From NCBI GenBank assembly GCA_041917695.1, contig JAYRXE010000037.1, positions 222,905 through 286,904 on the forward strand: DNA of 64,000 bases, written 5' to 3'. The number at the start of each line of letters is the position of its first letter. Position 1 is the first letter of the stretch. Below the pieces are notes generated by a model that was not told the DNA's origin, did no database searches, and saw only the letters and a list, made by a program, of their open reading frames with translations. Shown here one piece after another: positions 9,820-64,000 of this stretch. The position numbers and the translations under genes are program-made. This stretch comes from Minisyncoccota bacterium. GTDB lineage: Bacteria; Patescibacteriota; Minisyncoccia; UBA6257; GWB1-50-10.

Positions 9820-12078
9820 ATGAATCGAAAGAGATTCCGGCAGATCGTCGTTTTTCCCGTATCCGCGTTCGCGCTCTTCCTTATCGGCGCGAGCCTTGTT
9901 TTTGCATTTAACGGCCCGACTAACTCTCCCGGGGTGGGGAGCGGAGCGTTCACGATAGACGGCAACGGCAACGTCGGCATCGGCAGTGCGACGTCTACCC
10001 CAACCACGGGCAGTTTTGGAGCGGTCTTCGGCGTCTCTTCAACGACGAATCCGGCATTTTATTTGAAGAATCCCGGCGGCAGGGGATTCGTGCTGTATTC
10101 GAACACCGCTTCGACGAGTTTCGCCATTTTTGACGAGACGGCGGGAGCAGACCGACTTTTCATAAATTCCTCCGGCAACGTCATCGTTCCCGGCAATATT
10201 ACCGCGACGGCTTTTGTCGGAACGCTTTCGGGAGACGTCTCCGCGGCGAACGTCACTTCGGCCGTCTTTGGGTCGCTTCAAGGCAATGGCGCATTCGCTT
10301 TTCCCGGTTCGCTCGGTATCGCAACCTCGTCAAAGACGGGTCTTCCGCAGGAACTTTCCGTGTACGGCACGGGATATATCCGCGACGGCCTGGGCGTCGG
10401 CATCGCAAGCCCCACGAGCAAAGTACACGTCTATTCGACCTCAACCGCTTTCGACGCGCTTCTTGAGACCTCCGGAGGCATGAAGACGGCCGTTGGCATT
10501 GACACGACCGGCGGTTACGCGGGAACCACCTCGAACCATCCGTTCCGCCTTTTTTCGAATAACGCCGAAAAATTGCGGGTGGCGACCTCCGGCAACGTGG
10601 GTATCGGAACGACGACCCCCGCCTACGCGCTCTCCGTTTCGGGAGAGATATACGCGACTGGTTCTTCGACTGCCGCCGCCTTTTGTCTTTCCGGTTCGTG
10701 CCAGACTTCTTGGACGGGCATGGGCCAGTGGACGAGCGTCACGGGCGGCATCTACTACATGGCGAACGTTTCCGTAGGCACTTCGACGGCAACCGCCTAT
10801 CCGCTTTTGGTTTCCACCTCGACCGATTCGCTTTTTGCGATCCGCCGTGCGGGTTCCACGTATCCGACCATCTTCAAACAGGGGACCGACGGCGTCCTCG
10901 TCGTGAATAATGCCAACCTCGATACATTAACCCTTAAGGACGGTTCGGTCGGTATCGGCGTTACGAGTCCCGGACAGAAGCTTGCAGTCGCTTCCTCAAG
11001 CGGCATCAGCGTCGACGTGACGGGCGGGCGTATCGTGAATCTCGGTGCCCCGTCTTCGGGAAGCGATGCCGCGACGAAGACCTATGTCGACAACGCCGTC
11101 GTGGGCGCGGTGAATTATTTCGCGCTTTCCGGCACGAATCTGTATCCGACCTCGACGACGTACGATCTCGGCGTGGGAACGACGACGCCGAGTTACAAGA
11201 TAGACGCGGTGGGAGATGTGAACGCGAGCGGAGCCTACCGTATCGCGGGCGCATCCGCCCTTGAAATCACGGGCGGACAGCTCCGTGTCGGAACGTCCTC
11301 GGCCATCACGTCGCTTGCACTTCACACGGGAGGCACCCAGCGGTTGGTAATCAATTCGTCGGGGCAAGTCGGCATCGCCTCATCGTCGCCGGGGTACGGT
11401 CTCGTCGTCGAAGGCACCTCTTATTTCTCCCAGCCGGTTTTCGTCGGTACGCCGACGAACCCCAGCCACGCGGCGACAAAGACCTACGTTGATTCGCTTT
11501 TTGTGGACGGAAGCTTCACGACGCTTACGGTTTCGGCGACAACGACGCTGAACGGTACGACTACGGTAAACGGAAACTGGAACTTGGCGGGTGCCGCGCT
11601 CGGAAACATAAATTTGAACAGCAATAACATCGTGGGCGTGAACAAGCTCACTGTTTCGACAATCGACCCGGTGTATGAGATCGCGGGGCGGAAATACGCC
11701 ACGTACGTCTCCGACACCATCGGCTTGAAGATGGAGGCCTATGGCAAGGGCCGCCTCGCTCCCGCGCACGGTTCCTATGAATACTCACTCGATTTCGCGA
11801 ATGCCCGCGAAGGCAGCGAATTGTGGCTTTTCTGGCAAACCGCAAAGGAAGGCGCGGATATGGAAGACATCGTGCTTACACTCACCGCAGAAGGCGGTAA
11901 AAGCCCGTTGTGGTATGAGCTTCGCCCTGCAGAAAAACGGATTGTCGTGAAGGGCGACGCGCCGGTCGCGTTTTCGTACCATATCGTGGCGCCCCGCCAT
12001 GACGCGGGCGAGTGGCCGACCGTCATAACGCCGGAGCATGACGACGGGAGTCGTCCGACCAGGCTGAAACTCCGCTAG
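9820..12078 (+). CDS. Giant secreted repeat protein, paralog of 4831..7434 (tail-fibre-like repeats).
   Basis: Signal/anchor (MNRKRFRQIVVFPVSAFALFLIGASLVFA). Same GTNLYPTSTTYDLGVGTTTPSY, SYFSQPVFVGTPT..HAATKTYVD motifs and the same C-terminal IDPVYEIAGRKYATY domain. TATAAT at 9801-9806 lies just upstream. Confidence 0.8.
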   Translation: MNRKRFRQIVVFPVSAFALFLIGASLVFAFNGPTNSPGVGSGAFTIDGNGNVGIGSATSTPTTGSFGAVFGVSSTTNPAFYLKNPGGRGFVLYSNTASTSFAIFDETAGADRLFINSSGNVIVPGNITATAFVGTLSGDVSAANVTSAVFGSLQGNGAFAFPGSLGIATSSKTGLPQELSVYGTGYIRDGLGVGIASPTSKVHVYSTSTAFDALLETSGGMKTAVGIDTTGGYAGTTSNHPFRLFSNNAEKLRVATSGNVGIGTTTPAYALSVSGEIYATGSSTAAAFCLSGSCQTSWTGMGQWTSVTGGIYYMANVSVGTSTATAYPLLVSTSTDSLFAIRRAGSTYPTIFKQGTDGVLVVNNANLDTLTLKDGSVGIGVTSPGQKLAVASSSGISVDVTGGRIVNLGAPSSGSDAATKTYVDNAVVGAVNYFALSGTNLYPTSTTYDLGVGTTTPSYKIDAVGDVNASGAYRIAGASALEITGGQLRVGTSSAITSLALHTGGTQRLVINSSGQVGIASSSPGYGLVVEGTSYFSQPVFVGTPTNPSHAATKTYVDSLFVDGSFTTLTVSATTTLNGTTTVNGNWNLAGAALGNINLNSNNIVGVNKLTVSTIDPVYEIAGRKYATYVSDTIGLKMEAYGKGRLAPAHGSYEYSLDFANAREGSELWLFWQTAKEGADMEDIVLTLTAEGGKSPLWYELRPAEKRIVVKGDAPVAFSYHIVAPRHDAGEWPTVITPEHDDGSRPTRLKLR

Positions 12079-26429: not shown

Positions 26430-26717
26430 TTATATTTTCTTGTCTTCTTTCATTTGTTTCAAAACCTGCATGAAGTATGCCCCGCGGTTTTTGACCCGCT
26501 TGTTGTCCGCGATGTCTTTGGCGAGCGACATAAGCTTTTCTTCGTCATGAGCTTTCGCAAGACGAATGTAGAGCGCCTTATGGTCCCGGTCCTCAAGGAG
26601 GTCGGCGATTGCGAGGCCGGTGGACTGGAATTTCCGCGAAACGCGGTTTTTATTCGTTTCTTTCCGCGCCGCGAGTTCCGCGAGATATTGGTCTTTCGGG
26701 AGCATGATGGCAGGCAT
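26430..26717 (-). CDS. Hypothetical small basic protein.
   Basis: 95-aa ORF directly upstream of def and co-directional. K/E-rich. Confidence 0.45.
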   Translation of the reverse strand: MPAIMLPKDQYLAELAARKETNKNRVSRKFQSTGLAIADLLEDRDHKALYIRLAKAHDEEKLMSLAKDIADNKRVKNRGAYFMQVLKQMKEDKKI

Positions 26718-26757: not shown

Positions 26758-26785
26758 TTGACAACTCGCATTCGTGTGCTATAGT
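26758..26785 (+). promoter_or_regulatory. Near-consensus sigma70 promoter (TTGACA-N16-TATAGT).
   Basis: TTGACA at 26758-26763, TATAGT at 26780-26785. No plus-strand CDS follows for over 300 nt. Confidence 0.45.
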
Positions 26786-26791
26786 TATCTC

Positions 26792-26996
26792 GTAACGATA
26801 GAAAGCGAACGTATTTTCAAAAGCTAGCGCCAGTTTGCACAACAAACGGCCAATAAATCCCTCCTTCAGTGAAGGTAAGGTCGAGCGGGAGATCTGCGCT
26901 CGCACCGTATGGGTTTATTGATACTAACTGCCACAAGCGGTTGGGAGGTCTCACTCTGAAAACAAAGCTTCAGCAATGTTTTCGGTGAGATTTTTC
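26792..26996 (+). ncRNA. Candidate small non-coding RNA of about 205 nt, between a consensus promoter and an intrinsic terminator. Family not identified.
   Basis: No ORF longer than 5 codons. Local hairpins (CCTTCagtGAAGG, CGAGCG-n9-CGCTCG). Ends in a terminator at 26949-26996. The region is lower in GC than its flanks. Confidence 0.3.
26949..26996 (+). terminator. Rho-independent terminator.
   Basis: tctcactctgaaaac...gttttcggtgaga forms an imperfect 13-bp stem followed by tttttcc. Confidence 0.5.
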
Positions 26997-27100
26997 CTGG
27001 CCGCTTTTTTGTTTTTGTGCTGAGCGTTTCCGACCGCTTCCCGAAGAAGGGATCGGGAACGCTCGCCGCAAGAACGGCGAGAGAAAATTAAAAAATCAAT

Positions 27101-27808
27101 ATGGAAAGGAAGTCCAAAATGAGACGGCTTGGTAAGATCAATTTCTTCACGGGATATGAAAACCTGACTCGCCTATGTTCACAATGCCTCGAGTATTACA
27201 GCGCATACGAGTTTTGCTATGAATTCAATTCTTCGCAGGACGTATGTGATGAGTGCGGTAAAAGAATTTTTTGCCACCTACTGTATAAGGATAGCCTCGA
27301 TAAGAAGTCGCATTGGGAGGTGCAGGTTATCCAGCTCCGTCGTAAAAAAGGAAGCAAGGAATTCAAAATAGAAGAAGATACGAAGAAGGCGTTCTTAAGC
27401 TTCTTTGCGGAGCTCGGAGAAAAAATATTCAATGAGGCAGATTACGTAAGCGAAACTGGCTTCAAACGATTCATAGGGGAGTCGGGACTCTGCGTCCATT
27501 CCCTTATCGAAGCGGTATGCCAGACGCTTGCTAAGAAGGATATCTTCATCCCCAGGGTTGGCGACAAGATATACATTGAGGGGGCTTTATATCTTTCGCA
27601 TGGCGCTGACGATTTCGCCGGTGGCCTCGCAACGGTAACCGGCGTACGCGGGAAGGGTGCACGCATGGTTTCAGTCAAAGAAGTCCCGGGAGAATTCGCA
27701 TGGGAGGGATATTTGGCAGAAAAGCAGGACGCCTTGAGAGAGATGTATGGAGAAAGCGCTGCATGTCCGACGCCCGACTATTCCCCTGAATCGAATGAAC
27801 CGTGGTAA
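27101..27808 (+). CDS. Hypothetical protein with an N-terminal Cys4 zinc ribbon (low-GC island).
   Basis: CSQC..(23)..CDECGKRIFCH. The remainder is unrecognised. Codon usage is AT-shifted relative to the genome. Confidence 0.6.
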   Translation: MERKSKMRRLGKINFFTGYENLTRLCSQCLEYYSAYEFCYEFNSSQDVCDECGKRIFCHLLYKDSLDKKSHWEVQVIQLRRKKGSKEFKIEEDTKKAFLSFFAELGEKIFNEADYVSETGFKRFIGESGLCVHSLIEAVCQTLAKKDIFIPRVGDKIYIEGALYLSHGADDFAGGLATVTGVRGKGARMVSVKEVPGEFAWEGYLAEKQDALREMYGESAACPTPDYSPESNEPW

Positions 27809-27888
27809 TCCTTGCGGTAGCCAAATGTATTGACAAAAAAGAAAAAAAGATGTATTATAAAAACAGTAAATTAGAAATGAGGTATGAA

Positions 27889-28533
27889 ATGAATTCACAA
27901 GAAAACCGTCGGGCTTTTGTTTGCCGCCTGGAGCGTTCCTTTTCGGAAAATGATAGGGAATCCATCATGTTTGCGTATGATCTCAGCAAATATGCGCATC
28001 GAGGCCATTTTAGGGAAGTGGGTCCGAGATATTTTGAGCACCCCCGAGAAATGTGCCTTATCGTGTTGGATGAGCTCAAAGTCGTCGACCGCGACGCCTT
28101 AATAGCTATATTCATACATGATGTCGGCGAAGATGTTGGCTTGTTTGGGAACATCAAGGAATTGCCCTATGAAAAATTTGAAGCAGTCTATAAGGGACGT
28201 GTTTCAAAAATTTTCGGCGAGGATATAGCTCAGCGAGGACTTGCTTTGATAAAGCCAGAAGTTGATAATCTTCGTTTTCTTTCGAAGGAGGAAGCAATGG
28301 AATTTTACATTGCCCGCCTACTCAAAGATAGGAAGGCTTGCTGGTTAAAAATGGTTGATGTATTGCACAACCTTCGTTCATCCGTCCAATTCTCACTGTC
28401 CAGAAAAAAATGGGCAATAAGGAAGTACTGCGGAAAATACCGCGATATTCTTGAGGAGGGAAGGAAATACGATTCTGGCGAAAAACTCTATGAACTCATC
28501 AATGTAGCTGCAAAAAGCCTACAGGAAGAATAG
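27889..28533 (+). CDS. HD-domain protein, RelA/SpoT-type hydrolase domain (small alarmone hydrolase-like).
   Basis: HRGHFREV...HPREM...IHDVGED...VDVLHNLRS matches the RSH hydrolase H..HD..ED..N pattern. GAGGT SD 6 nt before the ATG at 27889. In-frame alternatives are ATG 27850 and ATG 27877. Confidence 0.65.
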   Translation: MNSQENRRAFVCRLERSFSENDRESIMFAYDLSKYAHRGHFREVGPRYFEHPREMCLIVLDELKVVDRDALIAIFIHDVGEDVGLFGNIKELPYEKFEAVYKGRVSKIFGEDIAQRGLALIKPEVDNLRFLSKEEAMEFYIARLLKDRKACWLKMVDVLHNLRSSVQFSLSRKKWAIRKYCGKYRDILEEGRKYDSGEKLYELINVAAKSLQEE

Positions 28534-28548
28534 GGAATATGTATTATG

Positions 28549-28575
28549 AACCCCGCGCATGCGGGGTTTTTCTTT
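28549..28575 (+). terminator. Rho-independent terminator.
   Basis: aaccccgcgcatgcggggtttttc: perfect 7-bp GC stem plus T-run. Confidence 0.7.
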
Positions 28576-28597
28576 TGTAGTATCATGAATATATCCA

Positions 28598-44653: not shown

Positions 44654-44660
44654 GAATGCG

Positions 44661-44756
44661 TGAGCGGAAAAGGATTCGAACCTCTGGCCTCCAGATTCCG
44701 GAAACCCCCCACGGGATTGTTTAGTCTGGCGCTCTGCCGGTCTGAGCTATCCGCCC
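44661..44756 (-). tRNA. tRNA gene (96 nt) with an insertion of about 22 nt in the anticodon loop. Anticodon undetermined (CGG/Pro is one possibility).
   Basis: Minus strand: GGGCGGA-TA-GCTC-AGACCGGCA-GAGC-G-CCAGA-[CTAAACAATCCCGTGGGGGGTTTCCGGAA]-TCTGG-AGGCC-AGAGG-TTCGAAT-CCTTT-TCCGCTC-A. All stems pair. The 29-nt loop region contains a hairpin AATCCC/GGGGTT. Confidence 0.45.
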
Positions 44757-61138: not shown

Positions 61139-61897
61139 ATGATCACCTATAAGTCAAAGGAAGACCTTGAGCTTCTCCGCGTCTCCGGCGCGATTCTTTC
61201 GAGTGTTTTGAAAACTTTGCGGAGTGAAGCGCGCGAAGGCGTGCGGCTTTCGTATCTCGACAAGACGGCAGGAGCGCTTTTGAAATCAAAAGGGGCGAAA
61301 TCGGCATTTTTGGGGTATCGCCCTGAGGGAGCCGCGAAAGCCTTTCCCGCGCATATCTGCACATCGATAAACGACGAAGTGGTGCACGGCCTCCCGCGCG
61401 ATTATGCCTTGAAAACGGGGGACGTCTTGAAGATCGACCTCGGCGTGGATTACGAGGGGATGATTACTGATTCCGCGACTACCGTCGCAATCGGTCCGGT
61501 TTCGAAGAAAATAGAGAATTTGATTACTGCTACCGAAGCCGCACTCTACGATGCGATAGCCGTGGCAAAACCGGGGAAGCATCTCGGCGATATCGGCTAC
61601 GCGGTCGAAAAGCGGGTAATGCGCGGGAAATTCAAAATTATTGACGGGCTTACCGGCCATGGCACGGGCTTCAAGCTTCACGAGGACCCGACGGTATGGA
61701 ACTTCGGCCGGAAAGGGGAGGGCTTGGCGCTTCGCGAGGGGCTGGTGCTCGCCATCGAGCCGATGGCCTCCATCGGCACGGAAAAGACCATCGAGACCGC
61801 CGACGGCATCTTTAAGACGGTGGACGGTTCCACGGCTGCCCACTTCGAGCACACGATATTCATTACGAAGACCGGGTGCGAGATACTCACGAAATAG
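61139..61897 (+). CDS. map: Methionine aminopeptidase type I.
   Basis: Metal ligands in D..D..H..E..E arrangement (DLGVDYEGMITDS, HGTGFKLHE, LAIEPM, EHTIFI). Confidence 0.9.
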   Translation: MITYKSKEDLELLRVSGAILSSVLKTLRSEAREGVRLSYLDKTAGALLKSKGAKSAFLGYRPEGAAKAFPAHICTSINDEVVHGLPRDYALKTGDVLKIDLGVDYEGMITDSATTVAIGPVSKKIENLITATEAALYDAIAVAKPGKHLGDIGYAVEKRVMRGKFKIIDGLTGHGTGFKLHEDPTVWNFGRKGEGLALREGLVLAIEPMASIGTEKTIETADGIFKTVDGSTAAHFEHTIFITKTGCEILTK

Positions 61898-61970
61898 GAA
61901 ATATTGACAAATACGCTTTTTTAGGTTACTATTTTTTCAGCGTTTGAATTAAAAACCAAAGGAGGAAGGT

Positions 61971-62417
61971 TTGCTCTTCAAAGAAATTTCGCCTGACGAA
62001 GCAGTCCAGGCGTTTGAGCGGTATATGTCTGCATCTGAAACGAGGTGTATACAGAAAATTTTTGGAAAGCATTTTGCCCTCTTCGTCCATGAACGGGACT
62101 TGAGGCTCAGCTTTTCAGCGGCATTTTACCTTTACGACGATATCGTATGCGTAACGTGCCTTACCGGCGAAATGCCGAGTTATAAAGCCCTTAACGAGAT
62201 GCAGATTGGATACTTCGTTTTCGATTCTGAAAGCGGAGAATTGAGCTTGCGTATGGGGTGGTGTTTCGAAGAAAAGATGCTGGTTCTGAATATTCCGACC
62301 TCCTTATATGATTTACATTGGCTTACGGGCCATTTGGGAGGGGGAGTGGAGGTTTTTTCGCTTCTTCCACGCTCCATGCGAAGAGGAGATATGGAATACC
62401 AGGAGAACAGATGTTAA
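61971..62417 (+). CDS. Hypothetical protein (low GC).
   Basis: 148-aa ORF. GGAGGAAGG SD precedes a TTG start. AT-shifted codon usage. Confidence 0.45.
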   Translation: MLFKEISPDEAVQAFERYMSASETRCIQKIFGKHFALFVHERDLRLSFSAAFYLYDDIVCVTCLTGEMPSYKALNEMQIGYFVFDSESGELSLRMGWCFEEKMLVLNIPTSLYDLHWLTGHLGGGVEVFSLLPRSMRRGDMEYQENRC

Positions 62418-62538
62418 GGCCGGATTTTATCCGGTCTTTTATTTTGCGTGCGCGAAGCACTTGCGCAATATATTATTTTGTGCTATAATAATACCAGTAA
62501 GTTAAATAAACCATAAGGGAGAAAAATGGTGGGCAAAA

Positions 62539-62838
62539 ATGACGCCATTTGAAATCAATTTTTATTCATTGCTTTCAAGGAGGGCGACCCTCCTGGGAAA
62601 ACTGGTGAGATATGCTGATTTTTCAGCCGGCAAAATCACCAAAAACGAGAATGATATTTTGGTACGGCAATACGTCTATCTTTACGATTACTTGCGGGTA
62701 GGCAATGCGCAATTCTACTTTTACCTCCGGCAATTTCACCATATTCCTGAAGAGCTCCATGTGGGTTTGAGAAACGGCCATGAAATCGTGACTCTTCATC
62801 CGGCCTTGGCGGAGGTCCGTGCATCTTTTGATAACTGA
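62539..62838 (+). CDS. Hypothetical protein (low GC).
   Basis: 99-aa ORF rich in Y/F/L. Followed by a terminator. Confidence 0.4.
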   Translation: MTPFEINFYSLLSRRATLLGKLVRYADFSAGKITKNENDILVRQYVYLYDYLRVGNAQFYFYLRQFHHIPEELHVGLRNGHEIVTLHPALAEVRASFDN

Positions 62839-62841
62839 TTT

Positions 62842-62872
62842 AAAAAGCCCCGAATGGGGCTTTTATTTTTTC
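62842..62872. terminator. Bidirectional terminator.
   Basis: aaaaagccccgaatggggcttttatttttt. Confidence 0.7.
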
Positions 62873-64000
62873 TCCTTCTTATGCGGATTATGGTTTGGGC
62901 AGGATTTGTTCGAGCACCGCTCGGGTATCGTTTTCGTGCCTTCCATCATGAGCGCTCCGCATTCGGAACAGGTTTTTCCGGTCGGTTTCGATTTCATGAT
63001 GAACTTGCAGGCGGGATAATTCGAACAGCTGTAGAAAAAGCCGAAACGTCCTTTCCGCTCGACGATTTCGCCTGTCTTACATTCGGGGCAGGCAACCCCG
63101 GTTTTCCGCTTCGCCTCCTCTTCGGGGCTTTCCTTGATGTATTTGCACTTCGGGTAACGGTCGCAGGAGATGAACTTGCCGAACCGTCCCTCGCGTTCGA
63201 TGAGTTTCCCTTTTTCGCACTTCGGGCACATTTCGCCGGTCTCCTTCGGCGGCTCCATTTCGGAACCGTCGAATTTCCGCGCTCCCTGGCAGTCGGGAAA
63301 CCGCTTACAACTCAGGAATTTGCCGGTCCGCCCGAGTTTTACGATCATATCGGCTCCGCACACCGGGCATTTGAACTCCGCCGGCGCATCGCCGAGGTTC
63401 GTCGCTTTGTCGAGTTTTTCCTTTGATTTCACGTCCTTTTGAAACGGCTTGTAGAAATCCGAAAGGCTCTTCAGATAATCGCGCTTGCCGTCCGCTATCT
63501 CGTCGAGCTCGTCCTCCATTTCGGCGGTAAAGGTGTCGGAGATATAGGAAGGGAAATGTTCCTCGAGGAAATTGTTCACGACTTCGCCGGTGTCGGTGGG
63601 TACCAAGGCGCGCTGGATCTTTTCCACGTATCCGCGGTCGACGAGCGTCTTGATGATGGACGCGTAGGTCGAGGGGCGGCCGATGCCGCGCTTTTCAAGC
63701 TCTTTGATCAATCCCGCTTCCGAATACCGGCCCGGCGGCTGGGTTTCCTTCGCTTCTTCACTGATGTCGGCGAGGGTAATCGAATCTCCCGGTTTTACAT
63801 CCGGCAGGATGACCGCCTCGTTCTTGGCGAAAGAATCCGCGGTGAGCCATCCTTCAAAAACGAGAATATTGCCGTTTGCGGAAAAGTCCGGGATTGTTTC
63901 GCCGGAAATGTTCGCGCTCACCTTCGTGCGGAGGATTTTTGCGTCGGACATCTGGCTTGCGACGGTCCGCTCCCAAATCAATTTATAGAGCCGTTTTTGC
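62863..64000 (-). CDS. topA: DNA topoisomerase I, C-terminal part. Partial: the N-terminus lies beyond the window end.
   Basis: GRPSTYASII and multiple C4 zinc-ribbon repeats (CPVCGADM..CKRFPDC, CPKCEKGKL..CDRYPKC, CPECKTGEI..CSNYPAC). The reading frame is open up to position 64000. Confidence 0.85.
   Translation of the reverse strand, partial: QKRLYKLIWERTVASQMSDAKILRTKVSANISGETIPDFSANGNILVFEGWLTADSFAKNEAVILPDVKPGDSITLADISEEAKETQPPGRYSEAGLIKELEKRGIGRPSTYASIIKTLVDRGYVEKIQRALVPTDTGEVVNNFLEEHFPSYISDTFTAEMEDELDEIADGKRDYLKSLSDFYKPFQKDVKSKEKLDKATNLGDAPAEFKCPVCGADMIVKLGRTGKFLSCKRFPDCQGARKFDGSEMEPPKETGEMCPKCEKGKLIEREGRFGKFISCDRYPKCKYIKESPEEEAKRKTGVACPECKTGEIVERKGRFGFFYSCSNYPACKFIMKSKPTGKTCSECGALMMEGTKTIPERCSNKSCPNHNPHKKEKK

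Follow-up and report, generated by a model that had tools for sequence, protein, structure and literature searches.

We describe a two-gene unit in a 64,000-nucleotide stretch of DNA from a Minisyncoccota bacterium (positions 222,905 to 286,904 of contig JAYRXE010000037.1, assembly GCA_041917695.1; the whole stretch is referred to as the window). Its second gene (gene 2) encodes what, by homology and architecture, is a hydrolase-only RelA/SpoT homologue (RSH), i.e. a small alarmone hydrolase (SAH), and its first gene (gene 1) encodes a partner protein whose C-terminal domain, hereafter domain X, is found fused or adjacent to hydrolases of this kind in several independent lineages. On the strength of these comparisons we lean, with modest conviction, towards a reading in which a RelA/SpoT-type pyrophosphohydrolase is regulated or directed by a non-catalytic partner that docks on the enzyme, or bridges it to another protein, through domain X. 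The features of the unit on which the argument draws are as follows (aa, amino acids; ORF, open reading frame):

27119-27808 (+): gene 1, partner protein (229 aa; 235 aa from an alternative ATG at 27101)
27176-27256 (+): Cys4 zinc-ribbon-like motif of gene 1, C20-x2-C23 ... C43-x2-C46, within residues 1-142
27545-27805 (+): domain X of gene 1, acidic and SH3/Tudor-like, residues 143-229 (~88 aa)
27889-28533 (+): gene 2, SAH-type hydrolase (214 aa); the ORF opens at 27802 (GTG)
28039-28041 (+): codon of catalytic residue H51 of gene 2
28117-28122 (+): codons of catalytic residues H77-D78 of gene 2
28129-28134 (+): codons of catalytic residues E81-D82 of gene 2
28357-28359 (+): codon of catalytic residue D157 of gene 2
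28369-28371 (+): codon of catalytic residue N161 of gene 2

The likely start of gene 2 is the ATG at 27889, which lies behind a GAGG site and yields a product of the same length as an identical database protein (P0003). Residues R42, H51, H77-D78, E81-D82, D157 and N161 are invariant across 30 homologues and were aligned with the Rel structures; H51 lies within an FEHP sequence and N161 within DxLHN, and R47 is also present. In Rel and Mesh1, the counterparts of these residues bind metal and substrate. Gene 2 matches the NCBIfam family TIGR00691 (spoT_relA; E 1.1e-7) and the metal-dependent phosphohydrolase family phrog_990 (E 3.7e-17), and as a single sequence it retrieves the Rel hydrolase domains in the PDB (E 6e-8). 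The profile of its family, built from the 30 homologues, aligns over its positions 13-190 with PDB entries for hydrolase domains of long RSH enzymes (E ~1e-18 to 1e-19), as compared to 1e-12 for MESH1 and ~1e-6 to 4e-7 for the solved bacterial SAHs (7qoc and 7qoe). The homologues (n=33) are nearly all 203-247 aa long and most pass the Pfam HD_4 model; the few with a source name come from Patescibacteria, and several records of Nomurabacteria or Patescibacteria label the product RelA/SpoT family protein. The original prediction had described gene 2 as a stand-alone hydrolase with the RelA/SpoT signature, and this is borne out: the catalytic residues are intact, and Pfam and NCBIfam detect no synthetase, TGS, zinc-finger (ZFD) or ACT/RRM domain in the protein, HD_4 being its sole Pfam domain. 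Eleven SAH subfamilies have been published (PMC7229694), and the distance of gene 2 to the solved SAHs, which is the yardstick here instead of subfamily models, suggests that it lies outside the characterised ones. The encoded enzyme is predicted to be a stand-alone metal-dependent 3'-pyrophosphohydrolase that most likely strips the 3'-diphosphate from (p)ppGpp- or (p)ppApp-type substrates.

Gene 1 was originally credited with 235 residues, which corresponds to the ORF as it opens at 27101; the likelier start is 27119, which is preceded by a GGAAAGGAAG ribosome-binding site, is used in other annotations and matches an identical 229-aa database protein (P0001). Over its full length, gene 1 has a single relative among 5.8 billion sequences (P0002, 72% identical; 72.5%), and it has no match in Pfam, NCBIfam, PHROGs, PADLOC or PDB sequences. 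P0002 is encoded on a 3.5-kb JGI contig (L001), where the order gene 1 - HD hydrolase - dehydrogenase - enolase is the same as in the window. Residues 1-142 cluster only with P0002, and the four cysteines of the Cys4 motif (C20, C23, C43 and C46), which are putative metal ligands, are invariant in both known sequences. An AlphaFold model of full-length gene 1 made from this two-sequence alignment is unusable, with a predicted local distance difference test score (pLDDT) of 31. The informative conserved part of gene 1 is, as judged by these searches, its C-terminal domain X and not the zinc ribbon, which is shared with a single sister genome only; the N-terminal Cys4 region is by the same comparison a lineage-specific addition. 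Of the earlier picture of a partner with an N-terminal Cys4 ribbon and no recognisable family, the Cys4 motif stands, whereas the C-terminal part of the protein belongs to a large unnamed family.

This family came to light in an exhaustive profile search with gene 1, which returned 333 of 1.84 billion cluster representatives (clusters at 50% identity) at E<=1e-3, all of which match only residues ~143-229. The best 150 of the 333 matches were inspected. The consensus of X reads PKVGDxIYVxTxLYLSHGxDDFxGGLAxV...ExPGxxYNW...Q..LK..FG..AHPDPDxRPEFN; Y152 and Q203 are invariant, and P145, G148, G162, D164, D165, G168, G169, E188, W195, L199, P219, D220 and N226 are conserved in at least 90% of sequences. 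The family consists for the most part of stand-alone proteins of 90-135 aa that are annotated as hypothetical, and it extends over bacteria, DPANN archaea and phages, with sources that include Woesearchaeota, Nanoarchaeota, Terriglobia/Angelobacter, Eremiobacterota/Elarobacter and Kaiserbacteria as well as viral contigs. Neither Pfam, NCBIfam, PHROGs nor PADLOC has an entry that matches X, and sequence searches of the PDB returned no relative either. Its AlphaFold model, computed from a 65-sequence alignment, is confident (pLDDT 94, predicted template-modelling score 0.82) and comprises four to five strands followed by a long helix. Foldseek searches with this model against PDB and BFVD returned nothing below E 0.1, and its resemblance to Tudor, KOW and SH3 barrels is weak, with weak scores. 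The bacterial barrels used for comparison were the C-terminal Tudor domain of UvrD/PcrA, the N-terminal domain of CarD, uL24 and the KOW domain of Spt5/NusG; X shares no sequence similarity with these, and it differs in its strong acidity, in the additional long helix and in a tail with the conserved sequence PDPDxRPEFN. In the window protein, X has an isoelectric point (pI) of 4.6 and a net charge of -6, and the family medians are 5.3 and -4.

X and the hydrolase are joined in several ways. Among the best 150 of the 333 X matches, 4 of 149 representative proteins are fusions of X to a RelA/SpoT-type HD domain, and they occur in both orders: P0043 (310 aa) and P0080 (257 aa) are HD-X proteins, P0112 (275 aa) is X-HD, and P0084 (403 aa) is X-linker-HD. 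The HD domain of P0043 matches the gene 2 family profile at E 2e-92. The same set of best matches has 56 extensions of X proteins, among which HD ranks second in frequency and is alone in being assignable to a known family. The two families also meet as neighbouring genes. The gene 1-gene 2 pair is kept in L001, and the metagenome locus L031 has the layout TrmB (minus strand) / stand-alone 98-aa X / hydrolase, with 29 nt between X and HD. On a quick neighbour-joining tree of HD sequences, the X-associated hydrolases fall in scattered places (the window together with L001; L024; L031; and three distant fusions), and their genomic backgrounds differ, with a divergent TrmB in L024, LysR, HU and response regulators in L117, and an integrase and DUF87 in L119. 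By our own estimate, the chance expectation of even one X adjacency is far below one, given that just 333 of 1.84 billion representatives contain X and that ~100 hydrolase loci were examined. Homologues of the two genes, for which the original prediction had named a complete lack of linkage as the telling observation, are linked by fusions and by adjacencies alike. The view that gene 1 and gene 2 form a functional unit, not a chance neighbourhood, is upheld by several independent lineages in which X recurs, either fused to a hydrolase of this type or beside one, and on these comparative grounds the two genes very likely work together.

Further support for this view comes from the hydrolases most closely related to gene 2. 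In this clade, which is found in Patescibacteria-like contigs, the common layout is a divergent TrmB (~251 aa), a small acidic ORF and HD; the TrmB/hydrolase group comprises L004, L005, L006/L007, L008, L024, L031, L034, L036 and L102. The small ORF varies from locus to locus. Specifically, it is X in L031; a protein of 81-83 aa with the motif VVCDTFDYDDYPVYV (family Y) stands upstream of HD in L005-L007; a protein of 107-114 aa (family Z) takes this place in L036 and L102; a Cys-rich protein of 75-80 aa (family W) does so in L004 and L034; and L008 has none. The families are tied to one another and to the enzyme by further fusions, namely P0051, which is X-Y (BLASTP 2e-20 to Y), and P0013, which is HD-Z (6e-32). 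Y, Z and W have no match in Pfam, NCBIfam, PHROGs, PADLOC or PDB sequence searches. The four partner families have acidic pI values (4.6-5.3), in contrast to the basic hydrolase (8.2). Because the partner slot varies, fusions tie the families together and the charges are opposite, these data suggest that interchangeable small acidic modules contact the hydrolase. In the mechanism we propose, gene 1 would be a non-catalytic partner, the acidic X domain of which would dock on the basic hydrolase or link it to another protein and in this way regulate or target it; X, like Y, Z and W, would belong to a set of no fewer than four small acidic partner families that can stand in for one another just upstream of the hydrolase or in fusion with it. 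In most related loci the unit sits beside the divergent TrmB; no TrmB regulator is present in the window, where the unit instead occupies an AT-shifted islet common to one related genome.

Several observations weigh against this regulatory-partner reading. As a single sequence, gene 2 falls under the Pfam HD_4 cut-off (E 3.8e-4; 20.6 bits vs 27.2). In neighbourhood counts made with crude ORF calls and home-made hidden Markov models, X was present in only 1 of 80 metagenome hydrolase loci, and conversely no gene 2-family hydrolase was found around any of the 14 X genome loci or the X viral loci (~6 kb per side, contig permitting), the X loci themselves having been located with a 9-sequence alignment subset and degenerate DNA patterns. 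Lone X genes are found in unrelated contexts as well. Gene 1 is 72.5% identical to its L001 counterpart and the flanking genes are 62-73% identical to theirs, as compared to 47% for the hydrolases, an inequality that would be unexpected for a tightly co-adapted pair. Finally, gene 1 and gene 2 do not overlap but are separated by 80 nt (80-86 nt), and separate expression is possible, given a near-consensus promoter in the gap:

27830-27858 (+): promoter-like site TTGACA-17-TATTAT, 11/12 consensus matches

This site is not kept in L001, the sole related locus. Two imperfect 15-nt direct repeats, at 27847-27861 (AAGATGTATTATAAA) and 28536-28550 (AATATGTATTATGAA), bracket the hydrolase ORF almost exactly; together with the high divergence of the hydrolase, they may reflect chance or the trace of a cassette-like replacement of the hydrolase gene.

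The neighbours of X away from the hydrolase hint at a different substrate. In Terriglobia genomes (L013, L014, L016, L019 and L020), X is syntenic as recO-X-glyQ-glyS. Among IMG/VR viral contigs, X lies directly after an HNH-RNA ligase (PF09414) and two genes before Thg1 in L115/L116, two genes after an RNA ligase that is 57% identical to the L115/L116 ligase in L127, and between two SpoU methylases and a different RNA ligase in L121, where a P-loop kinase-like ORF is also present; PTH2 is encoded two genes downstream of X in L107-L112, and calcineurin-type phosphoesterases lie near X in L165 and L167, the latter also with a KhpA/B KH protein. On L024, a Ro60/TROVE plus vWA protein, an RNA quality-control factor (10263-11879, minus strand), is encoded 3.3 kb from the HD-X fusion gene. 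These neighbours lead to an alternative in which the substrate of the hydrolase is a tRNA or RNA 3' end (a 3'-pyrophosphate or phosphate on CCA), X is an accessory to RNA healing and sealing, and the pair is a tRNA 3'-end repair module. The enzymology would allow it: the SAHs MESH1 and ATfaRel remove the 3'-pyrophosphate that toxSAS (toxic small alarmone synthetase) enzymes put on the CCA end of tRNA, and RSH hydrolases have been proposed as possible RNA 3'-phosphatases (Kurata et al., bioRxiv 10.1101/2021.04.30.441581). We nevertheless hold this alternative to be unlikely. The acidity of X (family median pI 5.3, net charge -4) is unusual for a direct RNA binder and argues against such binding; no RNA ligase is encoded near any hydrolase locus or in the window; and the link of X to RNA-end biology is an anecdotal lead from ~11 viral context groups that come with no background statistics, phage auxiliary genes being known to cluster for many reasons. 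A broader form of the idea, to which we attach just as little weight, would make X a widespread accessory domain of RNA and nucleotide 3'-end enzymes, and the 'alarmone hydrolases' of Patescibacteria really tRNA 3'-end de(pyro)phosphorylating enzymes of repair or regulation whose target or timing is set by X, Y, Z or W.

The remaining explanations concern conflict or coincidence. Type IV antitoxins are found among known SAHs, and those of phages counteract every toxSAS tested (PMC7229694). The hydrolase might likewise be protective: as an immunity or counter-defence enzyme against toxins that make alarmones or pyrophosphorylate tRNA, it would detoxify the alarmone-type products that toxic synthetases (toxSAS, or secreted (p)ppApp synthetases) of a phage, host or competitor make, with gene 1 as a sensor or adaptor. 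The AT-shifted islet, the mobile and conflict genes of other loci (Fic, an NTP_transf_2/HepT pair and an integrase beside L006/L007; the integrase of L119) and the fast evolution of the hydrolase relative to gene 1 and the flanks would fit, and variable partner modules would suit an arms race. We consider this role rather improbable, as none of the ~90 loci inspected contains an adjoining synthetase gene, PADLOC yields no match, X also occurs in housekeeping synteny, and the window has no mobility gene or flanking repeat. It is very unlikely, in turn, that the two genes are unrelated neighbours, merely co-inherited on one islet, with X promiscuous and its fusions incidental. Most X genes and most hydrolase genes are indeed unlinked, a promoter-like site lies between the genes and their divergence rates are very different, but for so rare a family coincidence would have to account for four fusion architectures in both orders and two independent adjacencies, as well as for the parallel behaviour of Y and Z. 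Hardly credible is a toxin-antitoxin pair in which the N-terminal region makes gene 1 a toxin that the hydrolase counters as antitoxin. The two-gene layout with an SAH does recall FaRel-ATfaRel, and the N-terminal 142 residues have no usable fold model. However, Pfam, NCBIfam, PHROGs, PADLOC and PDB sequences reveal no synthetase, nuclease or other toxin domain in gene 1, X does not look like an enzyme and often occurs as a lone gene, the genes are separated by the 80-86 nt gap, and the N-terminal region is missing from every other X-HD pairing. With no synthetase-like or toxin domain, no PADLOC match and X in housekeeping contexts such as recO-X-glyQS, the toxSAS and anti-phage framing first given to the locus finds no support. 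The regulatory-partner reading remains the one we favour.

The unit occupies a compositionally distinct islet. The two plus-strand ORFs span 27101-28533, where the GC content is 44.6% as compared to a window mean of 54.6% (standard deviation 2.8, 1433-nt windows), i.e. ~3.6 standard deviations below; this is the lowest-GC 1.4 kb of the window, and only 0.16% of 1433-nt windows are as low. At third codon positions, GC is 0.535 in gene 1 and 0.442 in gene 2, as compared to 0.73 and 0.70 in the next two genes downstream, which encode a 2-hydroxyacid dehydrogenase and enolase. The AT shift reported at first sight for the 27.1-28.5 kb segment is confirmed by both profiles. The horizontal acquisition that it was taken to suggest fares less well: the islet is compositionally foreign, but neither mobility genes, nor a tRNA at the islet, nor meaningful flanking repeats were found (repeats being only short and at chance level), and the islet of L001 has the same AT offset (37-38% GC vs 43-45% in its flanks), so any acquisition predates the split of the two lineages and is not recent. 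Other possible causes of the shift are low expression and relaxed codon use. The genes around the islet are housekeeping ones, encoding a PEP-utilising enzyme, fmt, def, the 2-hydroxyacid dehydrogenase, enolase and a pseudouridine synthase.

Besides the intergenic promoter-like site listed above, the islet has two further signals:

27010-27078 (+): long imperfect leader hairpin of gene 1 (69 nt; core 27022-27064), free energy -42.9 kcal/mol, z -4.7
28548-28579 (+): intrinsic terminator closing the islet; hairpin 28548-28569 with a 9-bp stem and 6 G-C pairs, then TTCTTTTGTA

The terminator, a G+C-rich hairpin followed by a T-run, is as strong as had been proposed. The leader hairpin corresponds to an inverted repeat first placed at 27010-27060; the repeat is real, and its coordinates were slightly off. 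As no T-run follows it on either strand, the hairpin is not a terminator, and no copy of its arm occurs elsewhere in the window, so it is not a repeated element. A regulatory role had been suggested for it, but the hairpin is not seen in the overlapping part of L001, a contig that starts inside this region. The 400-nt gap upstream of gene 1 contains no ORF. Within it, a near-consensus promoter-like site (TTGACA-16-TG-TATAGT, 26758-26785, plus strand) precedes a segment of ~215 nt (26792-27008, plus strand; free energy -75.5 kcal/mol, z -4.45) that ends in a long hairpin and a T-run and is a candidate structured small RNA by folding. Rfam searches of the upstream non-coding region and of the whole window returned one tRNA only. 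This is a 97-nt tRNA-like gene at 44660-44756 (minus strand), which scores 55 bits against the Rfam tRNA model; ARAGORN gives it no assignment and reports its anticodon as 'aaac' at position 35. The gene may contain an intron or an unusual anticodon loop.

Other ORFs without assigned families were noted along the window. Directly upstream of the islet and just downstream of def, a 95-aa ORF (26430-26717, minus strand) matches no Pfam, NCBIfam or PHROGs family, and it occupies the same position in the other assemblies whose gene 1 and gene 2 proteins are identical. Apart from the islet, 1433-nt windows at or below 47% GC are confined to 61450-63330, which holds two orphan plus-strand ORFs, 61971-62417 (148 aa) and 62539-62838 (99 aa); judged from translations, these are flanked by a methionine aminopeptidase-like gene and by a zinc-finger-rich topoisomerase-like gene on the minus strand.

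The kind of enzyme encoded by gene 2, an SAH, is already known. Its recurrent association with a partner domain was not found described: searchable literature yielded no account of an SAH with a recurrent unnamed partner domain, or of an X/Y/Z/W slot beside TrmB. SAHs are usually treated as unregulated single-domain proteins, and recurrent partners that are fused or adjacent to them would mean that they are regulated or targeted in the manner of the long RelA/SpoT enzymes. A tractable question follows, namely what X, Y, Z and W sense or bind. Thousands of "hypothetical proteins" would gain an annotation if X were named and tied to RelA/SpoT hydrolases and RNA-end enzymes. Nucleotide signalling in Patescibacteria is poorly known, and the finding makes alarmone or tRNA-end metabolism in this group accessible to experiment; if the RNA 3' end were the true substrate, ultra-small bacteria and their phages would have a modular system for the surveillance of RNA ends.

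Four known systems provide a frame for the pair. With toxSAS modules that carry an SAH type IV antitoxin, such as FaRel-ATfaRel (PMC7229694), it has in common a two-gene unit that includes an SAH and possibly mobile DNA. The partner here is not an alarmone synthetase, no toxin feature is apparent, the genes do not overlap and no defence system is matched; as neither gene 1 nor the related loci provide a synthetase partner, the pair lacks what defines toxSAS. In PADLOC-DB 2.0, gene 1, gene 2, X, Y and W have no match at E<=0.01. RNA repair cassettes, exemplified by T4 Pnk-Rnl and Pnkp/Hen1, are a second frame: X adjoins RNA ligases, Thg1 and phosphoesterases in viral contigs, and SAHs can act on tRNA 3' ends, whereas no ligase or kinase is encoded in the window or near hydrolase loci, and the link runs via the neighbours of X only. 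A third frame is provided by the long RSH enzymes (Rel, SpoT and RelA), in which the hydrolase is controlled by appended C-terminal domains that include a zinc-finger domain. In both cases the hydrolase would be regulated or targeted by non-catalytic modules, and some relatives of gene 2 carry X covalently fused; the module of gene 1 differs in being a separate polypeptide, with no similarity to TGS, ZFD or RRM/ACT detected by sequence or fold. With the known SAHs (Mesh1/MESH1, PbcSpo such as ATfaRel, PaSpo and RelH), gene 2 shares a single HD domain, the full catalytic set and a length of ~200 aa. It differs from them as a separate sequence family that is nearer to the long-RSH hydrolase domains than to MESH1 or the solved SAHs, and that is accompanied by small acidic partners and a divergent TrmB regulator.

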